Assembly: GCA_019310965.1 (NCBI GenBank)
Contig: JAFDDG010000030.1
Span: forward strand, 2,390-66,389
DNA length: 64,000 nt
Direction: 5' to 3'
Source: Deltaproteobacteria bacterium
Lineage (GTDB): Bacteria; Myxococcota_A; UBA9160; SMWR01
Position 1 is the stretch's first letter; every line of letters begins with the position of its first letter. The notes beneath the pieces were generated by a model. That model searched no databases. It was not told the origin of the DNA and was given only the letters and a program-made list of their open reading frames with translations. Below are positions 10,821 through 58,172 of this stretch, piece after piece. Both the position numbers and the translations under genes were made by a program.

Positions 10821-11039
10821 ATGAAACGCGCAAATCTTGTGCTTGATGAGGATACCCTCGAAGAGGCAACCCGCCTCTCCGGCGAGAAGACCTACTCGGC
10901 CGCCGTAATGCGCGCGCTCGAAGACTTCGTACGCCGGGCCAAGGCGCGGCAGATCCTCGAGCTTCGAGGCTCGGGCCTGTGGGAGGGAGATCTCCCTGAG
11001 ATGCGCGGAGACAAACGCCGCAAGAAGAAGACGTCGTGA
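10821..11039 (+). CDS. vapB: Type II antitoxin (VapB-like)
   Basis: ATG 10821 in the frame of ORF 9417..11039. The 72-aa product begins MKRANLVLDEDTLEEATRLSGEKTYSAAVMRALEDFVRR. Its stop overlaps the PIN gene start (GTGA). Confidence 0.7.
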   Translation: MKRANLVLDEDTLEEATRLSGEKTYSAAVMRALEDFVRRAKARQILELRGSGLWEGDLPEMRGDKRRKKKTS

Positions 11040-11425
11040 TCCTGGTCGACACCTCGGTCTGGATCGAGGTCTTCCGAGCTCGTCGCCCTCTCGATCTGGA
11101 GGCGAGCGTGGACCTCGACGAGGTCGTGACCTGCCTCCCGATCGTGCAGGAGATTCTCCAGGGATTCCGCGAGGAGAACGCCTACCGAAGAGCCCGCGAC
11201 TCCATGCTCTCGTTTCCGATCGTCGAGTCCCCCCTCGGGAGCGACGTCTTCCTGGACGCCGTCGGTCTCTACCGCGCCGTCCGCCGAAGCGGGAGAACGG
11301 TCCGATCTTCCGTGGACTGCCTCGTCGCGGCCTGCGCGATTCGGCACGACCTCGAAGTGCTGCACCGCGACCGGGATTATGCAGCGCTGGCACGGGTCTC
11401 TGCGCTGCGCCAGCGAACGCCATGA
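11036..11425 (+). CDS. vapC: PIN-domain toxin (VapC-like)
   Basis: ORF 11036..11425. MILVDTSVWIEVF is the PIN N-terminal acidic motif. The later D in DCLVAACAI and HRDRDY match PIN spacing. Confidence 0.8.
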   Translation: MILVDTSVWIEVFRARRPLDLEASVDLDEVVTCLPIVQEILQGFREENAYRRARDSMLSFPIVESPLGSDVFLDAVGLYRAVRRSGRTVRSSVDCLVAACAIRHDLEVLHRDRDYAALARVSALRQRTP

Positions 11426-11505
11426 TCACCGCCTCACCGGCTCGCCCCTAGAATGCCGAGCCGTCGCCCCGGACGGGCTGACCCCCCACACATCACCATA
11501 CTTGA

Positions 11506-11526
11506 TGCTGGTATCATTGCTGGTAT
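11506..11526 (+). promoter_or_regulatory. Direct repeat TGCTGGTAT x2 (candidate promoter/operator of the second TA pair)
   Basis: cttgaTGCTGGTATcatTGCTGGTATtcaac lies 18-38 nt upstream of ATG 11544. It is locally AT-richer than the flanks. Confidence 0.35.
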
Positions 11527-11543
11527 TCAACTAGGCTGTCGGC

Positions 11544-11747
11544 ATGGCGGAGAAGCGCAAGATCACCCTGGAGGTGCCGGCAGACCTGCTGGAACGCGCT
11601 CTCGCCTCGTCGGGCGAAGGCATCACGCAGACGGTGCGGCAGGGGTTGAAGCTGGTCGCCGCCGGACGCGCCTACGAGGAGCTGCGGCGGCTGCGCGGCA
11701 AAGTGAAGCTCGGCATCGACCTGGAAGCCCTGCGCGAGGACCGGTGA
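11544..11747 (+). CDS. Type II antitoxin (second pair)
   Basis: ORF 11544..11747, 67 aa, beginning MAEKRKITLEVPADLLERAL. Its stop overlaps the downstream PIN gene start. Confidence 0.6.
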   Translation: MAEKRKITLEVPADLLERALASSGEGITQTVRQGLKLVAAGRAYEELRRLRGKVKLGIDLEALREDR

Positions 11748-12127
11748 TCGCGGTCGACACCAGCTCCTGGATCGCCTTCTTCTCCGATCGCGACTCGCCG
11801 GGCGACGACACGGCACTCGTGGAGAGCGCGCTCGCAGACCACCAGGCTTGCTTGCCTCCGGTCGTCCTGACCGAGTTGCTGAGTGATCCGAAGCTCCCGC
11901 GCGCACTCGCCTCGCTCTTCCTGCAGCTCCCGCTCCTCGAAAGCGAGCCGGGCTTCTGGGAACGCGCCGGACGCTTGCGAGCCAAGCTGATCACGCGACG
12001 CCGCCGGGCCCGTCTGGCGGACACCCTCATCGCGCAGAGCTGCCTGGATCACGGCGTCCGTCTCGTGACCCGAGACGACGACTTCCGTCATTACGCTCGC
12101 CTCGGGGGCCTGCGACTCGCCCTTTGA
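11744..12127 (+). CDS. vapC: PIN-domain toxin (VapC-like, second pair)
   Basis: GTG 11744 in the frame of ORF 11453..12127. Recognisable strings are VIAVDTSSWIAFF, LPPVVLTELLS, ADTLIAQSCL and VTRDDDF. Confidence 0.78.
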   Translation: MIAVDTSSWIAFFSDRDSPGDDTALVESALADHQACLPPVVLTELLSDPKLPRALASLFLQLPLLESEPGFWERAGRLRAKLITRRRRARLADTLIAQSCLDHGVRLVTRDDDFRHYARLGGLRLAL

Positions 12128-13979: not shown

Positions 13980-14051
13980 GTCGGGAGGATAACTGCCCGA
14001 ATGCGGCGAGCAATTCCGTGCGCCGGATGTCGAGCCGTCCCTTCGACTCGC

Positions 14052-14516
14052 TCAGGCGTTCGCATTCCAGTCGGCGATCAGCGTCTCTATCGTGACGTCC
14101 ATCACGGGCTTCATGTCCTCGTCGTACAACTCGTAGAGGATCCCGTCGCTGGCGTGACAGCCAAAGAAGGCGATCCCGCCCTCGTCTCCCCCTCGCTCGA
14201 GGTGCGGCAGTGGCGCATCCACCGTCAGCGCGTAGTCGCCGGCGCATCGCACCTTGGGCTCGGCGCGAGTTCCGTCCGGATGGATGTCCCACAGATGCTG
14301 TTCGCCCTCGAACACGAGGACGGTCGTGGTCGCGATGTGTCGATGGACCGGGCAATGACCGCCGTCGCCCTCCCACCGCACCACCATGTCGAGGGTGCCG
14401 GCGGCCAGGTCGTGACCGAGGATCGTGTATTCGTGGCTCACCTTGTAGGAAAGCCCGGGGTCGCCCGTCACCTTCCGCCACTTGTGACGCGCGGGATCGA
14501 AGAAGCTCTGGGCCAT
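14052..14516 (-). CDS. Cupin-domain protein
   Basis: ATG 14516 with an aaggaggg RBS, inside ORF 14052..14561. HCPVHRHIATTTVLVFEGEQ resembles a cupin metal motif. Confidence 0.5.
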   Translation of the reverse strand: MAQSFFDPARHKWRKVTGDPGLSYKVSHEYTILGHDLAAGTLDMVVRWEGDGGHCPVHRHIATTTVLVFEGEQHLWDIHPDGTRAEPKVRCAGDYALTVDAPLPHLERGGDEGGIAFFGCHASDGILYELYDEDMKPVMDVTIETLIADWNANA

Positions 14517-19035: not shown

Positions 19036-19848
19036 TCAGGCGAGGCCCGAGAAGTCGATCTGGCCCGTGGTCATGAAGGCGCTGAAGCCCATGTCCACGT
19101 TCAGGTTCACACCGTTGACGTAACGCGCCGCATCCGCGCCGAGGAAGACCAGCGTGGTGGCGATGTCGGTGGGCGTGGCGATCGTCCCTCCGCACTGCTC
19201 GATGGTCCAGCTCATCGTCTTCTCGGTCATGGTCTCGTTGAACTCCGGGAGCAACGGCGTATCGATCGGCGCCGGGCACACGCTATTCGTGCGCACGCCG
19301 CGGGCAAGCGTCTGCTTGGCGCTCTTCAACGTGTAGACCTGCACGCACTCCTTCGAGAACCCATAGCCGTCGCCGACGAGATCCTTGTGCGAATCGCACC
19401 AGGCGAGCAGCTCCGCGCGATCTTCGATGGCAATCGCCTCCATCACCTCCGCCAGGTGGCCGGGCCACTGGCCGCCGGCGATCGACGCCGTGTTCACGAT
19501 GGCGCCTCCCTGCGGAATCTGCGGCAACAAGGCCTCGGACAGCTGACGCAGACCCAGCCAGTTCACGCTCATCACATCGGCGACCGGACGCGTCGCAGAG
19601 ATGCCGGCGTTGTTGAACAGCACGTCCACCCGGCCGTCGATCTGCTCGGCTGCAGCCGCCACGGCCGCCGCATCGCCCATATTGGTCTCGATGAACGAGC
19701 TGATGGGCCCGTCGGGGCGCTTGATGTCGAGGGCGATGACTTCCGCCGCACCGAGCTGCTGCAATACCTCGAGGCACGCCGCGCCCACGCCCGAGAAGGC
19801 TCCGGTGATGACGACGCGCTTGCCCGAATAGTCGAAGGGGTGGCTCAT
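19036..19848 (-). CDS. Short-chain dehydrogenase/reductase, 3-alpha-hydroxysteroid dehydrogenase / coniferyl-alcohol dehydrogenase-like subgroup
   Basis: ATG 19848 (alternative 19860) in ORF 19036..20139. Strings are KRVVITGAFSGVGAA and NNAG. There is a long insertion between ASIAG and the catalytic YGFSK, as I recall for the HsdA/CalA type. Confidence 0.7.
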   Translation of the reverse strand: MSHPFDYSGKRVVITGAFSGVGAACLEVLQQLGAAEVIALDIKRPDGPISSFIETNMGDAAAVAAAAEQIDGRVDVLFNNAGISATRPVADVMSVNWLGLRQLSEALLPQIPQGGAIVNTASIAGGQWPGHLAEVMEAIAIEDRAELLAWCDSHKDLVGDGYGFSKECVQVYTLKSAKQTLARGVRTNSVCPAPIDTPLLPEFNETMTEKTMSWTIEQCGGTIATPTDIATTLVFLGADAARYVNGVNLNVDMGFSAFMTTGQIDFSGLA

Positions 19849-46362: not shown

Positions 46363-47109
46363 ATGATGAATCGGTTCTTGCTGCTGCTCGTCGTCTTCGC
46401 ACCGCTGGCGTGCAGCTCACCGACCCCGAACCCCGACGCCCTGACCGGGATCCGAAGCCAGGATCGCGTGATCGTGGCGCCGCTCAACCTGGCGCTGCGC
46501 ATGCCCGCCGAGGTCGACGGCATGGAGGAGCCGGTCTGGCACGCACTCCTCGATCACTTCGAGACGCGAGGACGCGCGGTGCAGCGGATCGAAGCCGCCG
46601 ACGCGCGCAGCCTCTGGCACAGCGTCGTGAGCGAGATGGGCGAATCGCGCGAACTCGCTGGCGCGACGAGCAACTTCGCACGCCAGCTGGCCGCACACAG
46701 CGAGTTCGACTTGCTGGTGATGCCCGCCGTCGTGATGCGCCGGGCGGCGCTGCGCGGGCACCACGCCTACTGGGACGGCGTGCGACGCCGCGTGAGGGTA
46801 GACGGGGCCTGGGACGGCCCGATCGATGAAATCGGCGGGCCCGGGGATCTGACATACGTGCGGGGATTGAACGGTCAGCTGGCCGGTGCCTCGCTCTACG
46901 TCGCCGTACTGACCCCGGATGGCCGCTCCGTCTATCAAGGTCTCGGTGGTCTCGACCTGCTGCAAGAAGCCAAACAAGCACGGCACGCCAAGCGTGGAGT
47001 GTGGCGTGTGGTGCTGCGCGAGGCACCCTTCGCGACGCCCCGCCACCTGCAAGAAGGCATCGGCTTGGCGCTCGAGCGCGAGCTGCCACGCACTGCACGC
47101 GCCTGGTAG
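46363..47109 (+). CDS. Hypothetical lipoprotein
   Basis: ORF 46363..47109. MMNRFLLLLVVFAPLAC is a signal peptide plus lipobox. Confidence 0.55.
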   Translation: MMNRFLLLLVVFAPLACSSPTPNPDALTGIRSQDRVIVAPLNLALRMPAEVDGMEEPVWHALLDHFETRGRAVQRIEAADARSLWHSVVSEMGESRELAGATSNFARQLAAHSEFDLLVMPAVVMRRAALRGHHAYWDGVRRRVRVDGAWDGPIDEIGGPGDLTYVRGLNGQLAGASLYVAVLTPDGRSVYQGLGGLDLLQEAKQARHAKRGVWRVVLREAPFATPRHLQEGIGLALERELPRTARAW

Positions 47110-47139: not shown

Positions 47140-47652
47140 TCAGCTGCCCGTCAGGCGGCGCGGTGGAACCTGCTCGAGCAGCTCCGCCAGCGTCTCCTCC
47201 AGGTGCGGCGCGAACTCGCCCCGCACCTCCCGGCGGTGCTCCGCACTCCAGACGATCTCGCGAGCGAGGGCGTCGCGGATGCCGACCGTCAGGTGCACGT
47301 CCTCGTATGCCACATGTTCGATGGTACTCGGCCGGTCGAGGTTGTAGCTCTGCCCACCGCGGCCCCAGGTGCTGTCGAGCGTCTCCCGCGCGTGGGCCTG
47401 GGTGCGCAGCTGCTGCGAGGCATTCACGGAGACGTGAAACGTCACGAAGAAATCCGGCAGCTCACTCGCATCGACCTGGACGTAGCCGCGCTCGACGAGG
47501 CCCCGGGCGAGAAGTTCCTCGGTCCGTGGCGCCAGCGCGGGATCGCCTGTCGCATCCGGCGATGCCCGAGGCAGCCAGGCCCAGGTGCGGTAGCTGGAAA
47601 AGTCGTGATTCTCCGCGGCCTCGATCGAAATGAGTCGGGCGAAGCGTGTCAT
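47140..47652 (-). CDS. DUF4136-like protein (no signal peptide seen)
   Basis: ORF 47140..47652 with a GGAGGG RBS. FSSYRTWAW and the overall beta-rich pattern recall DUF4136. The call is tentative. Confidence 0.4.
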   Translation of the reverse strand: MTRFARLISIEAAENHDFSSYRTWAWLPRASPDATGDPALAPRTEELLARGLVERGYVQVDASELPDFFVTFHVSVNASQQLRTQAHARETLDSTWGRGGQSYNLDRPSTIEHVAYEDVHLTVGIRDALAREIVWSAEHRREVRGEFAPHLEETLAELLEQVPPRRLTGS

Positions 47653-48972: not shown

Positions 48973-50099
48973 TGGGCGGGAGCCGGACTCTCGCACACCG
49001 GGGAGAACCAATGGCGGCGCTGCGGTCTGCACTACTCGGGGCGCTTGTCGCGCTGGGCGTGCTCGGCGCGACGGAGCCAGCCGCTCTCGGCGCCGAGGGC
49101 ATCTGGATCCTAGACCAGGAGCCGGGCACGAAGGACGACCTGTGGCACTACCGGACGATCCCGCAGGTCTACGGCACCGTGCCGGAGTCGGACTTCGCTG
49201 CTCCCCGCGACGTGGCGGTCGCCCCCGACGGCCGCATCTGGGTGCTGGCCGACGCCCCGGGCAGCGCCGAGGACCTCTGGGTGTACGACCCGTCGAACGG
49301 CAGCTGGAGCGCGCTCCCCAGCTCCGACTTCATCAATCCCCGAGCCTTCACCTTCGCGCCGGACGGGAGGCTCTGGATCCTCGACGAAGACAGCGGCACG
49401 GACGACGAGGTCTGGAGCTACGACTTCGACACCGAATTCTACGAAACGCTGCCCGATTCGTATTTCGTCGACCCCCAGGACATCGTCTTCGGGCCGGACG
49501 GGAAGCTCTGGATCCTCGATCGCGAGGCCGGCGCGGTCGACGAGGTCTGGAGCTACGACTTCGGCACGAACTTCTACGAGACCATCGCCGGCTCGTCGTT
49601 CGTGGATCCGCGGGAGCTGGCATTCGCTGCCGACGGCCGGCTCTGGATCTTGGACCAGGAGGCGGGTACGACCGAGGACATCTGGGCCTACGAATTCGTG
49701 GGCCAGACCTACGCGACGTTGCCCGGCTCGGATTTCCTCGATCCCCGCCACCTCGCATTCGACGCGTCGGGGATGTTGTGGATTCTCGCCCAGGAGGCGG
49801 GCAGCAACGACGACCTCTGGCGCTACGACTTCGGAACGGAAACGTACGAGACCCTGGCCGGCTCCGGCTTCGTCGACCCCCGGGCGTTTGGCTTCAGCAC
49901 GGCCTTCGTGCCGCCGGTACCGGCGCTCGGCCCCGGGGGCGGAGCTCTCCTGGCGGGTCTGCTTGCGCTCGCTGGTGCGCGCCGGAGACGGGCAGTCAGG
50001 CGACGCGTGGGACGCAGCGGCGCTGCCAGCGGGGACCGCGCGCCTGTGGGTCGAGGTCCCGCGGGGAAGCACCATCGAGCAATGCCGCTTGTCGCGTGA
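48972..50099 (+). CDS. Secreted six-repeat (45-aa) beta-propeller-like protein with PEP-CTERM-like tail
   Basis: ATG 48972 overlaps the upstream stop (TGATG); the alternative start is ATG 49011. The signal peptide is MAALRSALLGALVALGVLGA. There are six repeats of LWILDxExGxxDxxWxYDFxTxxYETLxxSxFVDPRxxxFxxDG. Confidence 0.7.
   Translation: MGGSRTLAHRGEPMAALRSALLGALVALGVLGATEPAALGAEGIWILDQEPGTKDDLWHYRTIPQVYGTVPESDFAAPRDVAVAPDGRIWVLADAPGSAEDLWVYDPSNGSWSALPSSDFINPRAFTFAPDGRLWILDEDSGTDDEVWSYDFDTEFYETLPDSYFVDPQDIVFGPDGKLWILDREAGAVDEVWSYDFGTNFYETIAGSSFVDPRELAFAADGRLWILDQEAGTTEDIWAYEFVGQTYATLPGSDFLDPRHLAFDASGMLWILAQEAGSNDDLWRYDFGTETYETLAGSGFVDPRAFGFSTAFVPPVPALGPGGGALLAGLLALAGARRRRAVRRRVGRSGAASGDRAPVGRGPAGKHHRAMPLVA
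49098..49907 (+). repeat. 6 x 135-bp in-frame tandem coding repeats
   Basis: Units start GIWILDQ, IWVLADA, LWILDED, LWILDRE, LWILDQE and LWILAQE. Confidence 0.8.
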
Positions 50100-51226: not shown

Positions 51227-51379
51227 ATGGCAGCAAGGAAGAAGGCAGCGAAGAAGAAGGCAAGGAAGAAGGCCGTCCGGAAGAAGACCAACTACAAGAA
51301 GAAGACCAACTACAAGAAGAAGACGCGCAAGAAGGCCGGCAAGAAGAAGGCCCGCAAGAAGAAGGCGAGGAAGAAGTAG
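51227..51379 (+). CDS. 50-aa polycationic Lys-rich protein (histone H1-like / nucleic-acid-binding candidate)
   Basis: ATG 51227 is preceded by ggaggaggaaagc. The product is MAARKKAAKKKARKKAVRKKTNYKKKTNYKKKTRKKAGKKKARKKKARKK. I counted 25 Lys, 6 Arg and no acidic residues. Lys is encoded almost only by AAG. Confidence 0.6.
   Translation: MAARKKAAKKKARKKAVRKKTNYKKKTNYKKKTRKKAGKKKARKKKARKK
51281..51316 (+). repeat. Exact 18-bp tandem duplication (aagaagaccaactacaag x2), in frame
   Basis: Read directly at 51281..51298 and 51299..51316. It encodes KKTNYK twice. Confidence 0.9.
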
Positions 51380-53717: not shown

Positions 53718-56700
53718 TCAAGCGCCGAGCGTCGGCTCACCGGTCAGCGTGGGACGTGGGCGGCTCAGCTTTGCCGCCGCGCGTCGCGCGCCGCCGCGAA
53801 GGTCTTCGGCGATCACCATCGCTGCCGGCACCAGAAACAGCGTGAAGGCCGTGGCGACCAGCACGCCGAAAGCCAACGAGACCGCCATCGGCTTCACGAA
53901 CTGCGCCTGGGTGCTGCGCTCGAGCATGATGGGCGTGAGCCCGGCAAAGGTGGTCAGCGAGGTGAGCATGATGGCACGAAAGCGCGACTGACCGGCCTGC
54001 ACCGCCGCGGCTTCGAGCTCCATGCCACCCGCGCGCAATCGATTCAGGAAGGTGACCAGGACCAGGCTGTCGTTCACCACGACGCCGGCGCAGGCCATGA
54101 CTCCCGTCGCCGACAGGAAGCTCATCTGCACGCCGGTCAGAAAGTGCCCGAGTACGGCCCCCACGTAGCCGAACGGAATCACCAGCATGATGATCACGGC
54201 CTGAAGGTAGGAGCGCAGCGGCACGGCCAGCAGCGTGAAGATCGAGAGCAGCGCCACGAGGAAGCCAATGCGCAGGCCGGCGTAGGCCTCGCGGCTCTGC
54301 TTCTGCTCGCCCTGGAGCGAATACTGGACCCCGGGGAACTCCCGCATGAGCGCCGGCAGATCCTTCTCTTCGAGGCTGGTCACCACTTCATTGGCATTGG
54401 CGACGCCGTCGTCGATGTCGGCGATCACGTTGACCCGGCGGGAGCGATTTCGCCGCCGGATCGAGGCCGCCCCCCGACCGAACTCGGCCTGCGCCACCAA
54501 GCGAAACGGCGCCGACGAGCCGTCGGGAAGCCGGATGCGCATGTTCTCGACGTCGGCGAGTGAGCGCCGCTCTTCGAGAGGCCGGCGCACCATCACCTTC
54601 AACTCGTCGGCTCCACGCTGAATGCGCTGGGCCTCGGCGCCGTAGAAAGCCTGACGCACCTGACGTCCGAGATCCTCGAGAGTCAGCCCCTGGGCCTCGG
54701 CCTCGGGCAGGATGCCGAGCTTGAGCTGGCGCTTGCCGTCTCGATTCGAGTCGCGGATGTCGAAGACCCCGGGGTAGGCGGACAGCGCCCCGATCACGGC
54801 GTCCGCCGCCGCCTGGAGCTCGTCGAGGTCGTCGCCCCCCAGCTCGACGTTGATCGGATCGCCGAAGCGTTTGAATGCGCCGACGAAGGTGATCTCTTCG
54901 ACGCCCGGGATCGAGCCGGTGAGCTCGCGCCAGCGATCCGCGATGTCCGAGGCCCGCGATGTCCGAGGCTGTCAGGCTGCGCTCCTCGCTGGCACTCAGC
55001 TCCAGGGTGACCTGACCCAGGTGCGTCCGCCCCGTCGCAACGCGCCGGCCGCTCGCGACGCTGGTACCGTGGTGCTGCCCCAGCGTCGTGAGCGTGTGCA
55101 GCAGCATCGATGGCTCTTCCGGCTCGCTCATCTCGTCGAGCTCCCGAGTGAGCCGCACCGCCGCGGCCTCGAGCTGGGCGACCGCGCCCTCGGTCTGCTC
55201 GGTGGGCGTGCCGAGGGGCATGGTGAGCTGCGCCCGCACGCTGTCGGCCTGCATGGTCGGCGCCATCGACGACTTCACATGCCCGCTCTGGGCCAGACTC
55301 AGACACACGATGAAGCAGCCGAACGACACCGCCGCGGTGAGGTAGCGCCACTCCACGCAGGCGCGCACCGCCGGACCGTAGACACCCTCGGTAAAGGCGC
55401 GCAGCCGCTTCGCGACGCGCGACTGAAAGCGCGCCCAGGCCTTCGAGATCCGTCGCCGTGGCGGCGGCCCGCCGCCGAAGTGCGCCAGGTGCGACGGCAG
55501 CACCAGCTTCGACTCGACCAGCGAGAAGCCGAGAGCCACCATCATCACACCGCTGATGCCGAGCGCCATGAAGCGCGCGTGGCCACCCACCATGGTGAAG
55601 GGCGCGAAGGCGGCGATGGTGGTGAGCACGCCGAAGACCACCGGCGTTGCGACCTCCTGCGTGCCGCGAATCGACGCTCCCAACGGGTCGCCGGGTTGGC
55701 GTTCCTGGTGGGTGTAGATGTTCTCGCCGGTGACGATGGCATCGTCGACCAGGATGCCGAGCGCCATGATGAAGGAGAAGACCGTGAGGATGTTGATGTC
55801 GATGCCCAGCGGCGACATCAACGCCAGCGCTCCACACACCGAGACCGGCACGCCCATCGCCACCCAGAACGCGACTCGCAGCTTCAAGAAGACCGCCAGC
55901 AACACGAGCACCAGCACGAAGCCTCCGGCGGCGTTGCGCAGCATCATGCCGATGCGGTCGGCCAGGTAGAGGGAGTCGTCGTCCCAGACCGTGAGGGTGA
56001 TGCCCGCGGGCAGCCAGAGCCGCGCCGTCTCGATGTAGGCCCGCACCCGGGCCGCGATCTCCAGGGCCTGCTGGTCGCCAACCCGGAAGACCTGCACGAA
56101 GACCGCCGGCTGGCCGTCGAAGCGCGCGTACTTGCCGGTCTCCTCGAAACCGTCCTTCACTTCGGCCACATCACCGACCGTCACCCGCGAGCCGTCTCTC
56201 GCGGTGAGCAGCGGAATGCGCTCGAACTCGACACGGCGATAGGCCTGGCCTTCCGTGCGCAGCAGGATCTCGCCAGCCTGCGTCTTGACCGATCCGCCGG
56301 GAAGGTCGAGCGAGGAGCGTCGGATCGCGAGCACCACGTCGTCGAAGCGCAGGCCACGACGCTGAAGCTCCCTCTCCGACACCTCGATCGAGATCTCGTA
56401 GGGGCGCACGGCGGCCAGCTCGACGTTGGTCACGCCGGGCAACTTGGCGATGTCGTCTCGCACCTTCTGCCCGATGCGCGTGAGCGTGCGCTCATCCGCG
56501 GCGCCGTAGATCGCGATGTCGAGCACCTGGCCCGAGAACTTGACATCCGAGACGACCGGCTCCTCGGTCTCCTTCGGCAGCGTGGTGATGCCGTCGATGC
56601 GCGCCTCGATATGGTCGAGGGCGCGGCCCAGGTCCGCGCCGTCTTCGAGTTCGACGCTGACGTTGGTGGCTCCCTCGTTCGCGGAAGACGTCACATCGAC

Positions 56701-56934
56701 GATGCCCTCGACGCCCTCGATCTCCTCCTCGATGCGGATCGTCACGGACTTCTCCACGTCTTCGGGCGAAGCGCCGGGATACACAACGGTGGCGGAGACG
56801 TAGTTGATCTCGAAATCCGGCCAGACGGACTGCTTGATGTAAGGAGCGGAGAGGAGCCCCGCGATGATGATCGCCATCATCAGCAGGTTGGCGGCGACGT
56901 GGTTCTCGGCGAACCACGCGATGGCCCGGTTCAC
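53718..56934 (-). pseudogene. RND (AcrB/HAE-type) efflux transporter, reading frame broken by a 16-bp tandem duplication
   Basis: GTG 56934 overlaps the MFP stop (GTGA). The N-terminal 655 codons lie in the frame of ORF 54388..57321. After 54954 the AcrB-like sequence continues in the frame of ORF 53718..54797. Removing one 16-bp copy gives one continuous 1066-aa product. Confidence 0.85.
54938..54969 (-). repeat. Exact 16-bp tandem duplication (gene sense GCCTCGGACATCGCGG x2)
   Basis: Plus strand ccgcgatgtccgaggc occurs at 54938..54953 and again at 54954..54969. Confidence 0.95.
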
Positions 56935-58172
56935 GGCGCCCCGCTGGCGGCGGCGCGCAGCTGCATGCCCTCGATGGCGAAGCGCATCGGCGAGACGACC
57001 ACGCGATCGGCGGGCTCGAGGCCCCCGGCGATGATGACCTGGTCGCGCTCCCGTCGCACCAGCTGGACCGGGCGGATCAGGAGCTTGTCGGCCGCGTCGA
57101 GCAAATAGACCCGATCGCCCTCGCGCAGTGCGATCGACGGCAGCACGTACACCCCTTCGAGCTCCCTGCCGGCGATCTCTCCGCGTACGAAGAGCCCCGC
57201 CGGCAGGGGCAGGTGGTCGCTGCCCTGGCGCGCGTACGGATCGTCCACTCGCGCCACCACGTGCAACATGCGCGTGCGCTCGTCGATCTCGCCCTCCGTG
57301 CGCACCAGCCGCGCAGGCCACTCCTGCTCGCGGCCCGCGAGGCGGGCGGTCAGGCGCACGGGGGCGCCGGTCGCGACATCGCCGACGCCGAGCGGCAGCT
57401 CGAGCAGCGCCAGATCGTCGCTCTCGAGGGGCAGGCGCACCTCCGCGAAGTCGACCGCGTAGATGCGCGCGAGCTTGGCACCGAGATTCACGAACTGGCC
57501 GACGTCGACGCTGCGTTCGCGCACGCGGCCGGCAAACGGCGCGCGCAGCACGGTGCGCTCGAGGTCGAGCTGGGCCTGGGCCAGCAGGGCGCGGGCTTCG
57601 TCGAGGGATGCGGACGCTCCGAGCGCCTTCGCCTCGAATTGTTCGAGATCAGCGGCGCTGGCGGCACCGCGCTCGGCCAGCGCCCCGCGACGCTCGGCAT
57701 CCGCGCGCGCGAGCCTGGCCTCGCTGCGGCGCAGCTGCACGGCGGCCCGCGCGCGATCCACGGAGATCCGATGCTCCCGCCCATCCAGCCGCAGCAGCTC
57801 GTGGCCCTCCGCAAAGAAGCCTCCGGCCACCAGTGCGGGCGACACCCAGGTGACGCGACCGTGCACCTCGGCCACGAGATCACTCTCGGTGCGCGGGGAC
57901 ACCGTGCCGTGGGCGACGATCTGCACGCGCAGTGTCTGGGGCTGCGCCTCCAGAACGCGCACCAGCGGAATCAGCGGCTCCGGCTCGACCCGCACCGCCG
58001 TGGGCCGCGTCGCGAAGAGCAGAAACGAGATGGCTGCGGCCGTGGCCAGGGCGGCCAACGGGAGCAACCTCCTGAGGCGCCGCAGGCGCTTGTCCGGCAC
58101 CCGACCCTCGAGCGCGCCCAACGCCGGCTGGGCCTCGTCACGCGCCTCGGCCGACAGCGGATCGCTGCTCAT
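56931..58172 (-). CDS. RND efflux membrane fusion (periplasmic adaptor) protein
   Basis: ATG 58172 with a gggagg RBS, in ORF 56931..58310. It has an N-terminal TM helix and an alpha-hairpin region. RAPFAGRV is the lipoyl-like motif, and the C-terminal domain is beta-rich. Confidence 0.8.
   Translation of the reverse strand: MSSDPLSAEARDEAQPALGALEGRVPDKRLRRLRRLLPLAALATAAAISFLLFATRPTAVRVEPEPLIPLVRVLEAQPQTLRVQIVAHGTVSPRTESDLVAEVHGRVTWVSPALVAGGFFAEGHELLRLDGREHRISVDRARAAVQLRRSEARLARADAERRGALAERGAASAADLEQFEAKALGASASLDEARALLAQAQLDLERTVLRAPFAGRVRERSVDVGQFVNLGAKLARIYAVDFAEVRLPLESDDLALLELPLGVGDVATGAPVRLTARLAGREQEWPARLVRTEGEIDERTRMLHVVARVDDPYARQGSDHLPLPAGLFVRGEIAGRELEGVYVLPSIALREGDRVYLLDAADKLLIRPVQLVRRERDQVIIAGGLEPADRVVVSPMRFAIEGMQLRAAASGAP

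Follow-up and report, generated by a model that had tools for sequence, protein, structure and literature searches.

The window analysed here is a stretch of 64,000 nucleotides with a G+C content of 68.6%, whose nearest relatives are uncultured marine genome bins of Myxococcota or 'Deltaproteobacteria'. On its minus strand, at 53718..56934, lies a gene for a permease of the RND superfamily that is broken by a +1 shift after residue 660, caused by a 16-bp duplication. The question raised by this locus is what the duplication represents: a real and recent loss of the gene, an error of sequencing or assembly, a reversible switch, or the trace of a mobile element. We consider that it is most probably a strain-specific and recent loss-of-function mutation of the permease, of an ordinary kind, and give this reading a probability of about three in four (0.76).

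The duplication and the reading frames

The duplication is located at 54938..54969 on the minus strand and is an exact tandem repeat of a 16-bp unit, GCCTCGGACATCGCGG in gene sense, within the minus-strand string ...CTGACA GCCTCGGACATCGCGG GCCTCGGACATCGCGG ATCGCTGG... The unit occurs exactly 2.0 times, with 100% identity between the copies, in agreement with what an earlier note on this DNA had claimed; as the copies are identical, the choice of the 'extra' one is arbitrary. They fall in codons 656-661 of the permease. The features of the locus are as follows.

54954..54969, minus strand: copy 1 of the 16-bp unit GCCTCGGACATCGCGG, the 5' copy in gene sense
54938..54953, minus strand: copy 2 of the unit, equal to the 16 bases missing from sister contig L081 (blastn)
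54388..56934, minus strand: permease ORF as it stands, 848 residues, of which 660 are genuine (TM1-TM7 and some of the second periplasmic loop) and 188 form an Arg/Gly-rich tail
53718..54937, minus strand: true 3' portion of the permease (residues 661-1066, with TM8-TM12), read in the +1 frame
54972..54974, minus strand: TGA in the downstream (+1) frame, directly 5' of the duplication
56931..58172, minus strand: RND periplasmic adaptor gene (TIGR01730), 413 residues, intact, with a TGA stop that overlaps the permease GTG

The bases that flank the repeat (A before, A after) add no further match, and there is therefore no microhomology at the junction. The 64-kb window contains two exact tandem duplications with a period of at least 12, namely that in the pump gene and an in-frame 18-bp repeat at 51280, and the number expected by chance from 300 first-order Markov simulations of the window is a mean of 0.013 per window. 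The 16-bp duplication is not a chance match.

The 18-bp repeat (2.5 copies in tandem, 51280..51324) is found inside a plus-strand ORF at 51227..51379, encoding 50 residues that are extremely rich in lysine (MAARKKAAKKKARKK...KKKTNYKKKTNYKKK...). This ORF is called as a gene in a sister contig, with no family match on record there. Imperfect tandem repeats of 135 nt, present in about 2.6 copies with 74-81% matches, occur at 49352..49698 within another plus-strand ORF (49011..50099). The product of this ORF has weak matches to β-propellers of the NHL/Kelch type, and the repeats presumably correspond to propeller blades.

The duplicated segment is also bracketed by a perfect 8-nt inverted repeat, GCCAGCGA / TCGCTGGC in gene sense, with arms at 54929..54936 and 54986..54993, the 3' arm beginning one base past the 16-bp repeat. 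Folding of either strand of either allele gave hairpins no more stable than those of shuffled sequence (z from -0.02 to +1.3). A hairpin or quasi-palindrome was accordingly rejected as the cause of the duplication, and the inverted repeat is probably coincidental.

As deposited, the frame that starts at the native start codon (56934..54388) encodes 660 genuine residues ending ...SLTASDIA, followed by 188 out-of-frame residues beginning GLGHRGS..., and a scan of GC3 picks out a non-coding-like 3' tail of 534 nt. The true continuation, DRWRELTGSIPGVEE..., sits in the +1 frame, which is open from 54971 to the stop at 53718. Translation thus bears out the earlier description of an Arg/Gly-rich nonsense tail and of a genuine continuation in another frame. 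The TGA at 54974..54972 closes the +1 frame on its upstream side, so that any translational rescue would be confined to the 32 bp of the repeat. Removal of one copy yields, as had been proposed, a single protein of 1066 residues with a GTG start at 56934. The proposal that this gene is translationally coupled to that of its adaptor also finds its counterpart in the DNA, the GTG overlapping the adaptor stop codon as GTGA at 56934..56931.

The repaired permease and its adaptor

The repaired protein matches the Pfam family ACR_tran (PF00873) with residues 7-1035 on positions 4-1018 of the 1021 in the profile, at E=1e-159 and with a score of 533.8 bits against a cutoff of 28, which places it in the RND superfamily. 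For the unrepaired gene the same match extends only through residue 660. The repaired protein also aligns over its whole length to the solved chains of AcrB and MdtF. The reading of the gene as an otherwise intact AcrB-like RND gene with a +1 frameshift is borne out by both the frames and the Pfam match.

Hydropathy, admittedly a crude method, gives peaks at about 13-31, 340-478, 532-553 and 881-1037, with long hydrophilic stretches at 32-339 and 554-880. This is the topology of an RND protein, in which TM1 is followed by a large loop, TM2-7, a second large loop and TM8-12. The break lies between TM7 (about 532-553) and TM8 (about 881-899), in the second large periplasmic loop. What would be missing from the truncated product is the remainder of the porter domain, together with the docking domain, TM8-TM12 and the RWR motif that follows just past the break. 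This motif is nearly invariant in the 120 full-length homologues compared (R662 in 113, W663 and R664 in 119 each). The Asp-Asp pair of TM4 is invariant (120/120), as is R981, the arginine of TM11. In TM10 (repaired residues 945-954) there is no Lys or Arg at the place of the proton-relay K940 of AcrB, and N949 is invariant in all 120.

The adaptor gene is intact. Its product of 413 residues scores 173 bits on TIGR01730 (cutoff 94.9), and this confirms the presence of a partner MFP gene in the same operon. Assignment of the permease to a subfamily is a different matter. On the NCBIfam models it scores 412 bits for NF033617 (cut-off 1250), 358 for NF000282 (cut-off 1250) and 319 for TIGR00915 (cut-off 940), far short of what the HAE1/AcrB-like subfamily would require. 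The permease is here filed at the level of the superfamily only, and belongs to a divergent RND clade. It resembles the AcrB-type (HAE1) permeases in the full-length ACR_tran match, the invariant TM4 Asp-Asp pair, the TM11 arginine and the translationally coupled adaptor gene; it differs from them in the low NCBIfam scores, in having Asn949 rather than a lysine in TM10, and in that no gene for an outer-membrane factor adjoins the permease.

The intact allele and the wider comparison

A protein search identified a protein of 1066 residues that is 100% identical to the repaired one (P0001, NCBI MBW2270473.1). It is encoded on a contig of 45,633 nt, Ga0366820_1001924, from JGI sample 3300033154 (sister contig L081). 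Over the 3.2 kb of the pump gene there are no SNPs between this contig and the window, and the 16 bp are the sole difference. The claim that the gene carries no other damage is borne out by this identity. Across the 16,357 aligned bases of the two (blastn) there are 8 SNPs, 5 of them synonymous and 3 not, and a single gap, which is the 16 bp. The SNPs show that the contigs represent independent and slightly diverged strains and are not built from the same reads. The adaptor gene has only two differences, both of them synonymous.

The comparison with orthologues that the earlier note had called for leads to the same allele. At the site of the duplication, the DNA of orthologues with 85%, 74% and 65-68% protein identity is colinear and has a single copy, and none of the 120 full-length homologues has a gap within residues 654-679. 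One copy is therefore the ancestral state, as the sister allele has one copy and the homologues are free of gaps at the site. The second copy is a lineage-specific addition and, measured against the divergence of the strains, a very recent one, a reading that is strongly supported because the one-copy sister allele shows no other difference across the 3.2-kb gene. Of the options that had been put forward for the event, it is its recency that gains from these data.

The collections searched contain two assemblies with the pump gene at more than 90% identity, one with two copies and one with one copy. When metagenome contigs were scanned for the exact DNA of either allele, with a pattern that allowed a gap of 0-16 nt, no match emerged. 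Protein-guided scans produced no further allele either, the nearest hit in metagenomes being a fragment at 81% and GTDB representatives having nothing above 68%. In the literature, no paper mentioning the sample or the protein accessions was found.

Three sister contigs (L081, L166 and L167) can be compared with the window over about 48.8 kb, within which there are roughly 75 SNPs and four indels. The 16-bp indel in the pump gene is the only one of these changes that breaks a reading frame; the other three are of 42 bp and 21 bp, in frame and in one gene, and of about 139 nt, intergenic. The GC3 tail scan of the 64 kb, which looks for ORFs in which the coding signal gives out well ahead of the stop codon, gave no convincing frameshift-like ORF except the pump. 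The others that it flagged are antisense shadows, a gene with repeats that both strains have in intact form, and a normal lipoprotein. The last of these, at 46363..47109 on the plus strand, was considered as a possible second frameshift and rejected, as its translation continues as a normal lipoprotein through to the stop.

It is worth adding that the two in-frame indels both affect a DUF4136 gene (Pfam E=1e-13; 47140..47652, minus strand), which forms an in-frame indel hotspot among these near-identical strains. The window is without 42 bp encoding the core of the signal peptide and a lipobox-like cysteine, with a breakpoint at about 47627/47628, so that its protein starts MTRFARLI|SIEAAEN where that of L081 (locus 19292..19333) reads MTRFARLILVVALVCIGCVNHLSIEAAEN. 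The product of the window's gene is, on this basis, probably not exported. The L166 gene (10098..10631) keeps the signal peptide, and 21 bp are absent further on (window counterpart 47493..47513). Both L081 and L166 end or diverge inside this gene. The third indel concerns about 139 nt of intergenic sequence, present in L167 (12158..12577) and absent from the window at about 13996..14300, between an ORF of 154 residues and a gene for a fatty-acid hydroxylase. It is adjoined by a cluster of about 12 SNPs within 300 nt, which suggests a recombined or divergent patch.

The neighbouring genes are those of an ordinary chromosome. They include genes for a PAP2 phosphatase, an EamA transporter, a Na+/H+ exchanger, an AsmA-like protein, AIM24 and a MATE pump, and in addition a phosphoglycerate mutase, sulfatases, a GGDEF protein, P450/FMO enzymes, PIN/VapB pairs, and ammonium transport with P-II. 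The PIN/VapB genes form two adjacent toxin-antitoxin pairs of the PIN-domain/VapB type, at about 10821..12127 of the window (located from L167 14463..15769 with precomputed Pfam matches of the sister contig). A survey of genes in the window and the sister contigs revealed no transposase.

Explanations of the second copy

The explanation that competes best is that the organism has one copy, and that the second stems from chimeric or amplification-derived reads or from mis-assembly at a site that varies among strains. The two-copy allele is known from a single assembly, a contig of 76,945 nt that is present in both JGI and NCBI, and a single lesion in an otherwise perfect gene is the picture that an artefact would give. 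In the sister sample, moreover, strain heterogeneity does fragment contigs, as seen for L081 and L166 in the DUF4136 gene. Against this, the allele contains a junction, GCGG|GCCT with its flanks, that is absent from the one-copy allele, and an assembler working from a k-mer graph (k of at least 21), if such was used, could presumably not form this junction unless there were reads that carry it. The duplicated sequence is neither a homopolymer nor a low-complexity run. Neither the 64 kb nor the 48.8-kb comparison shows a further frameshift; in the latter, the remaining coding indels have lengths divisible by three, a pattern expected of real variation filtered by selection and not of random error. 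The artefact that had been offered as one option is therefore disfavoured, and we keep it as an unlikely reading with a small minority share.

It had also been suggested that the duplication could act as an on/off switch, in which gain and precise loss of the second copy toggle expression of the pump as a form of bet-hedging by the population, after the manner of pneumococcal capsule genes. One-copy and two-copy states do both exist in near-identical genomes. Perfect tandem repeats can be lost precisely via slippage or RecA-independent deletion, and a perfect 16-bp repeat is open to this. There are precedents in pneumococcal capsule genes and Ralstonia phcA, discussed below. However, the 'on' allele contains neither a repeat nor microhomology at the breakpoint, and the 'off' allele has just two copies of a 16-nt unit, so that nothing built in would make the step from on to off a frequent one. 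The stability of the local hairpin does not exceed that of shuffled sequence (z about 0), no variation in length is found at the site among the 120 homologues or the orthologue DNAs, and the assemblies number only two. With no repeat tract, no microhomology and one assembly per allele, the suggestion gains nothing from the analysis and is improbable. The more specific form of it, that the duplication is one state of a selected reversible switch for the pump in a wild population of an uncultured Myxococcota-like marine bacterium, serving for example in escape from a phage or toxin that exploits the pump, is very improbable. If true, it would extend duplication switching of the pneumococcal type to the efflux systems of environmental bacteria, although even this has published precedents.

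A different origin with the same consequence would be a target-site duplication, left when a cut-and-paste element excised and the ends rejoined. Most IS families, however, make target duplications shorter than 16 bp. No remnant of an element is present between the two copies, and the survey of genes in the window and sister contigs detected no transposase. The clean ends of the repeat, without microhomology, would fit such an origin, and insertion of an IS followed by its excision has been proposed for direct-repeat insertions in pseudogenes (PMC6054270). We regard it as highly doubtful here.

The remaining idea, that the gene still functions by programmed +1 ribosomal frameshifting or as a natural split pump of two polypeptides, could draw on the 188 codons over which the upstream frame stays open past the shift and on the calling of both fragments as proteins in public records, but it has next to no probability and was rejected on frame geometry and on the conserved residues lost from both fragments: the TGA directly 5' of the repeat restricts a shift to 32 nt, within which there is no in-frame stop, no recognisable shift site or known motif and no site conserved in relatives, all relatives are single-frame, and the first start in the downstream frame is a GTG at 54797, such that residues 661 to about 707, including RWR, are missing from both fragments.

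On the basis of these observations, we return to recent loss of function as the preferred reading. The large periplasmic loop that joins TM7 to TM8 would have acquired, within codons 656-661, a perfect 16-bp tandem duplication that displaced the frame by +1. Ribosomes starting at the native GTG would then make 660 correct residues followed by 188 of nonsense, and no working pump could form, while the adaptor gene is still intact. Because there is neither microhomology nor a repeat tract, a one-off error of replication or repair is the most likely origin, and loss of one copy would restore the permease gene precisely. We infer that the two-copy allele is present in the DNA of the organism. The loss of permease function is likewise to be expected from the topology and the conservation of the missing parts. 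As to the way in which the duplication arose, the replication or repair error is a suggestion, against which the absence of microhomology may be set.

The value of the observation is mainly practical, and it opens no new mechanism or question. Public records contain the broken gene in the form of two ordinary proteins, each under the name 'efflux RND transporter permease subunit'. MBW2361175.1 has 848 residues and is identical to the frameshifted ORF (P0027, on the contig of 76,945 nt), including the 188 out-of-frame residues, and MBW2361174.1 consists of the last 236 residues of the genuine 3' part. The annotation should be corrected, the two being fragments of one broken gene of which MBW2270473.1 is the intact form. 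The locus is also a clean example of a pseudogene caught at birth, from an uncultured bacterium for which the ancestral allele is available as well, and the duplication could help as a marker to tell apart strains that occur together.

Several known systems can be compared with this locus. In simple-sequence-repeat contingency loci, multi-copy tracts of units of 1-9 nt are present in both states. The pump gene is like them in that a change in the copy number of a repeat shifts the reading frame; it is unlike them in that the unit is of 16 nt and present in two copies, with a single copy in the intact allele and in all orthologues, and it does not belong to this class.

A closer likeness is to phase variation by tandem duplication, described for the pneumococcal genes cap3A, cap8E and tts (Waite et al., 2001, 2003, cited in PMC4022640) and for phcA of Ralstonia solanacearum (Poussier et al., 2003, cited in bioRxiv 10.1101/2023.04.27.538605). 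There, a spontaneous tandem duplication within the ORF inactivates the gene and precise loss of a copy would restore it, and the same would hold for the pump if its function is indeed lost. The difference is that in the pneumococcal and Ralstonia systems many independent duplications and revertants were seen experimentally, whereas the pump has a single duplication, known from one assembly, and no sign of recurrence or reversion.

The closest comparison is with the insertions found in bacterial pseudogenes. In a large set of these, about half of the small insertions form direct repeats (PMC6054270), and here as there a short tandem duplication within the ORF leads to frameshift and truncation. 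There is no essential difference, other than that the pump was caught very early, with no further difference from its intact allele. The duplication involves no new mechanism, and belongs to a class of mutation that is already known.
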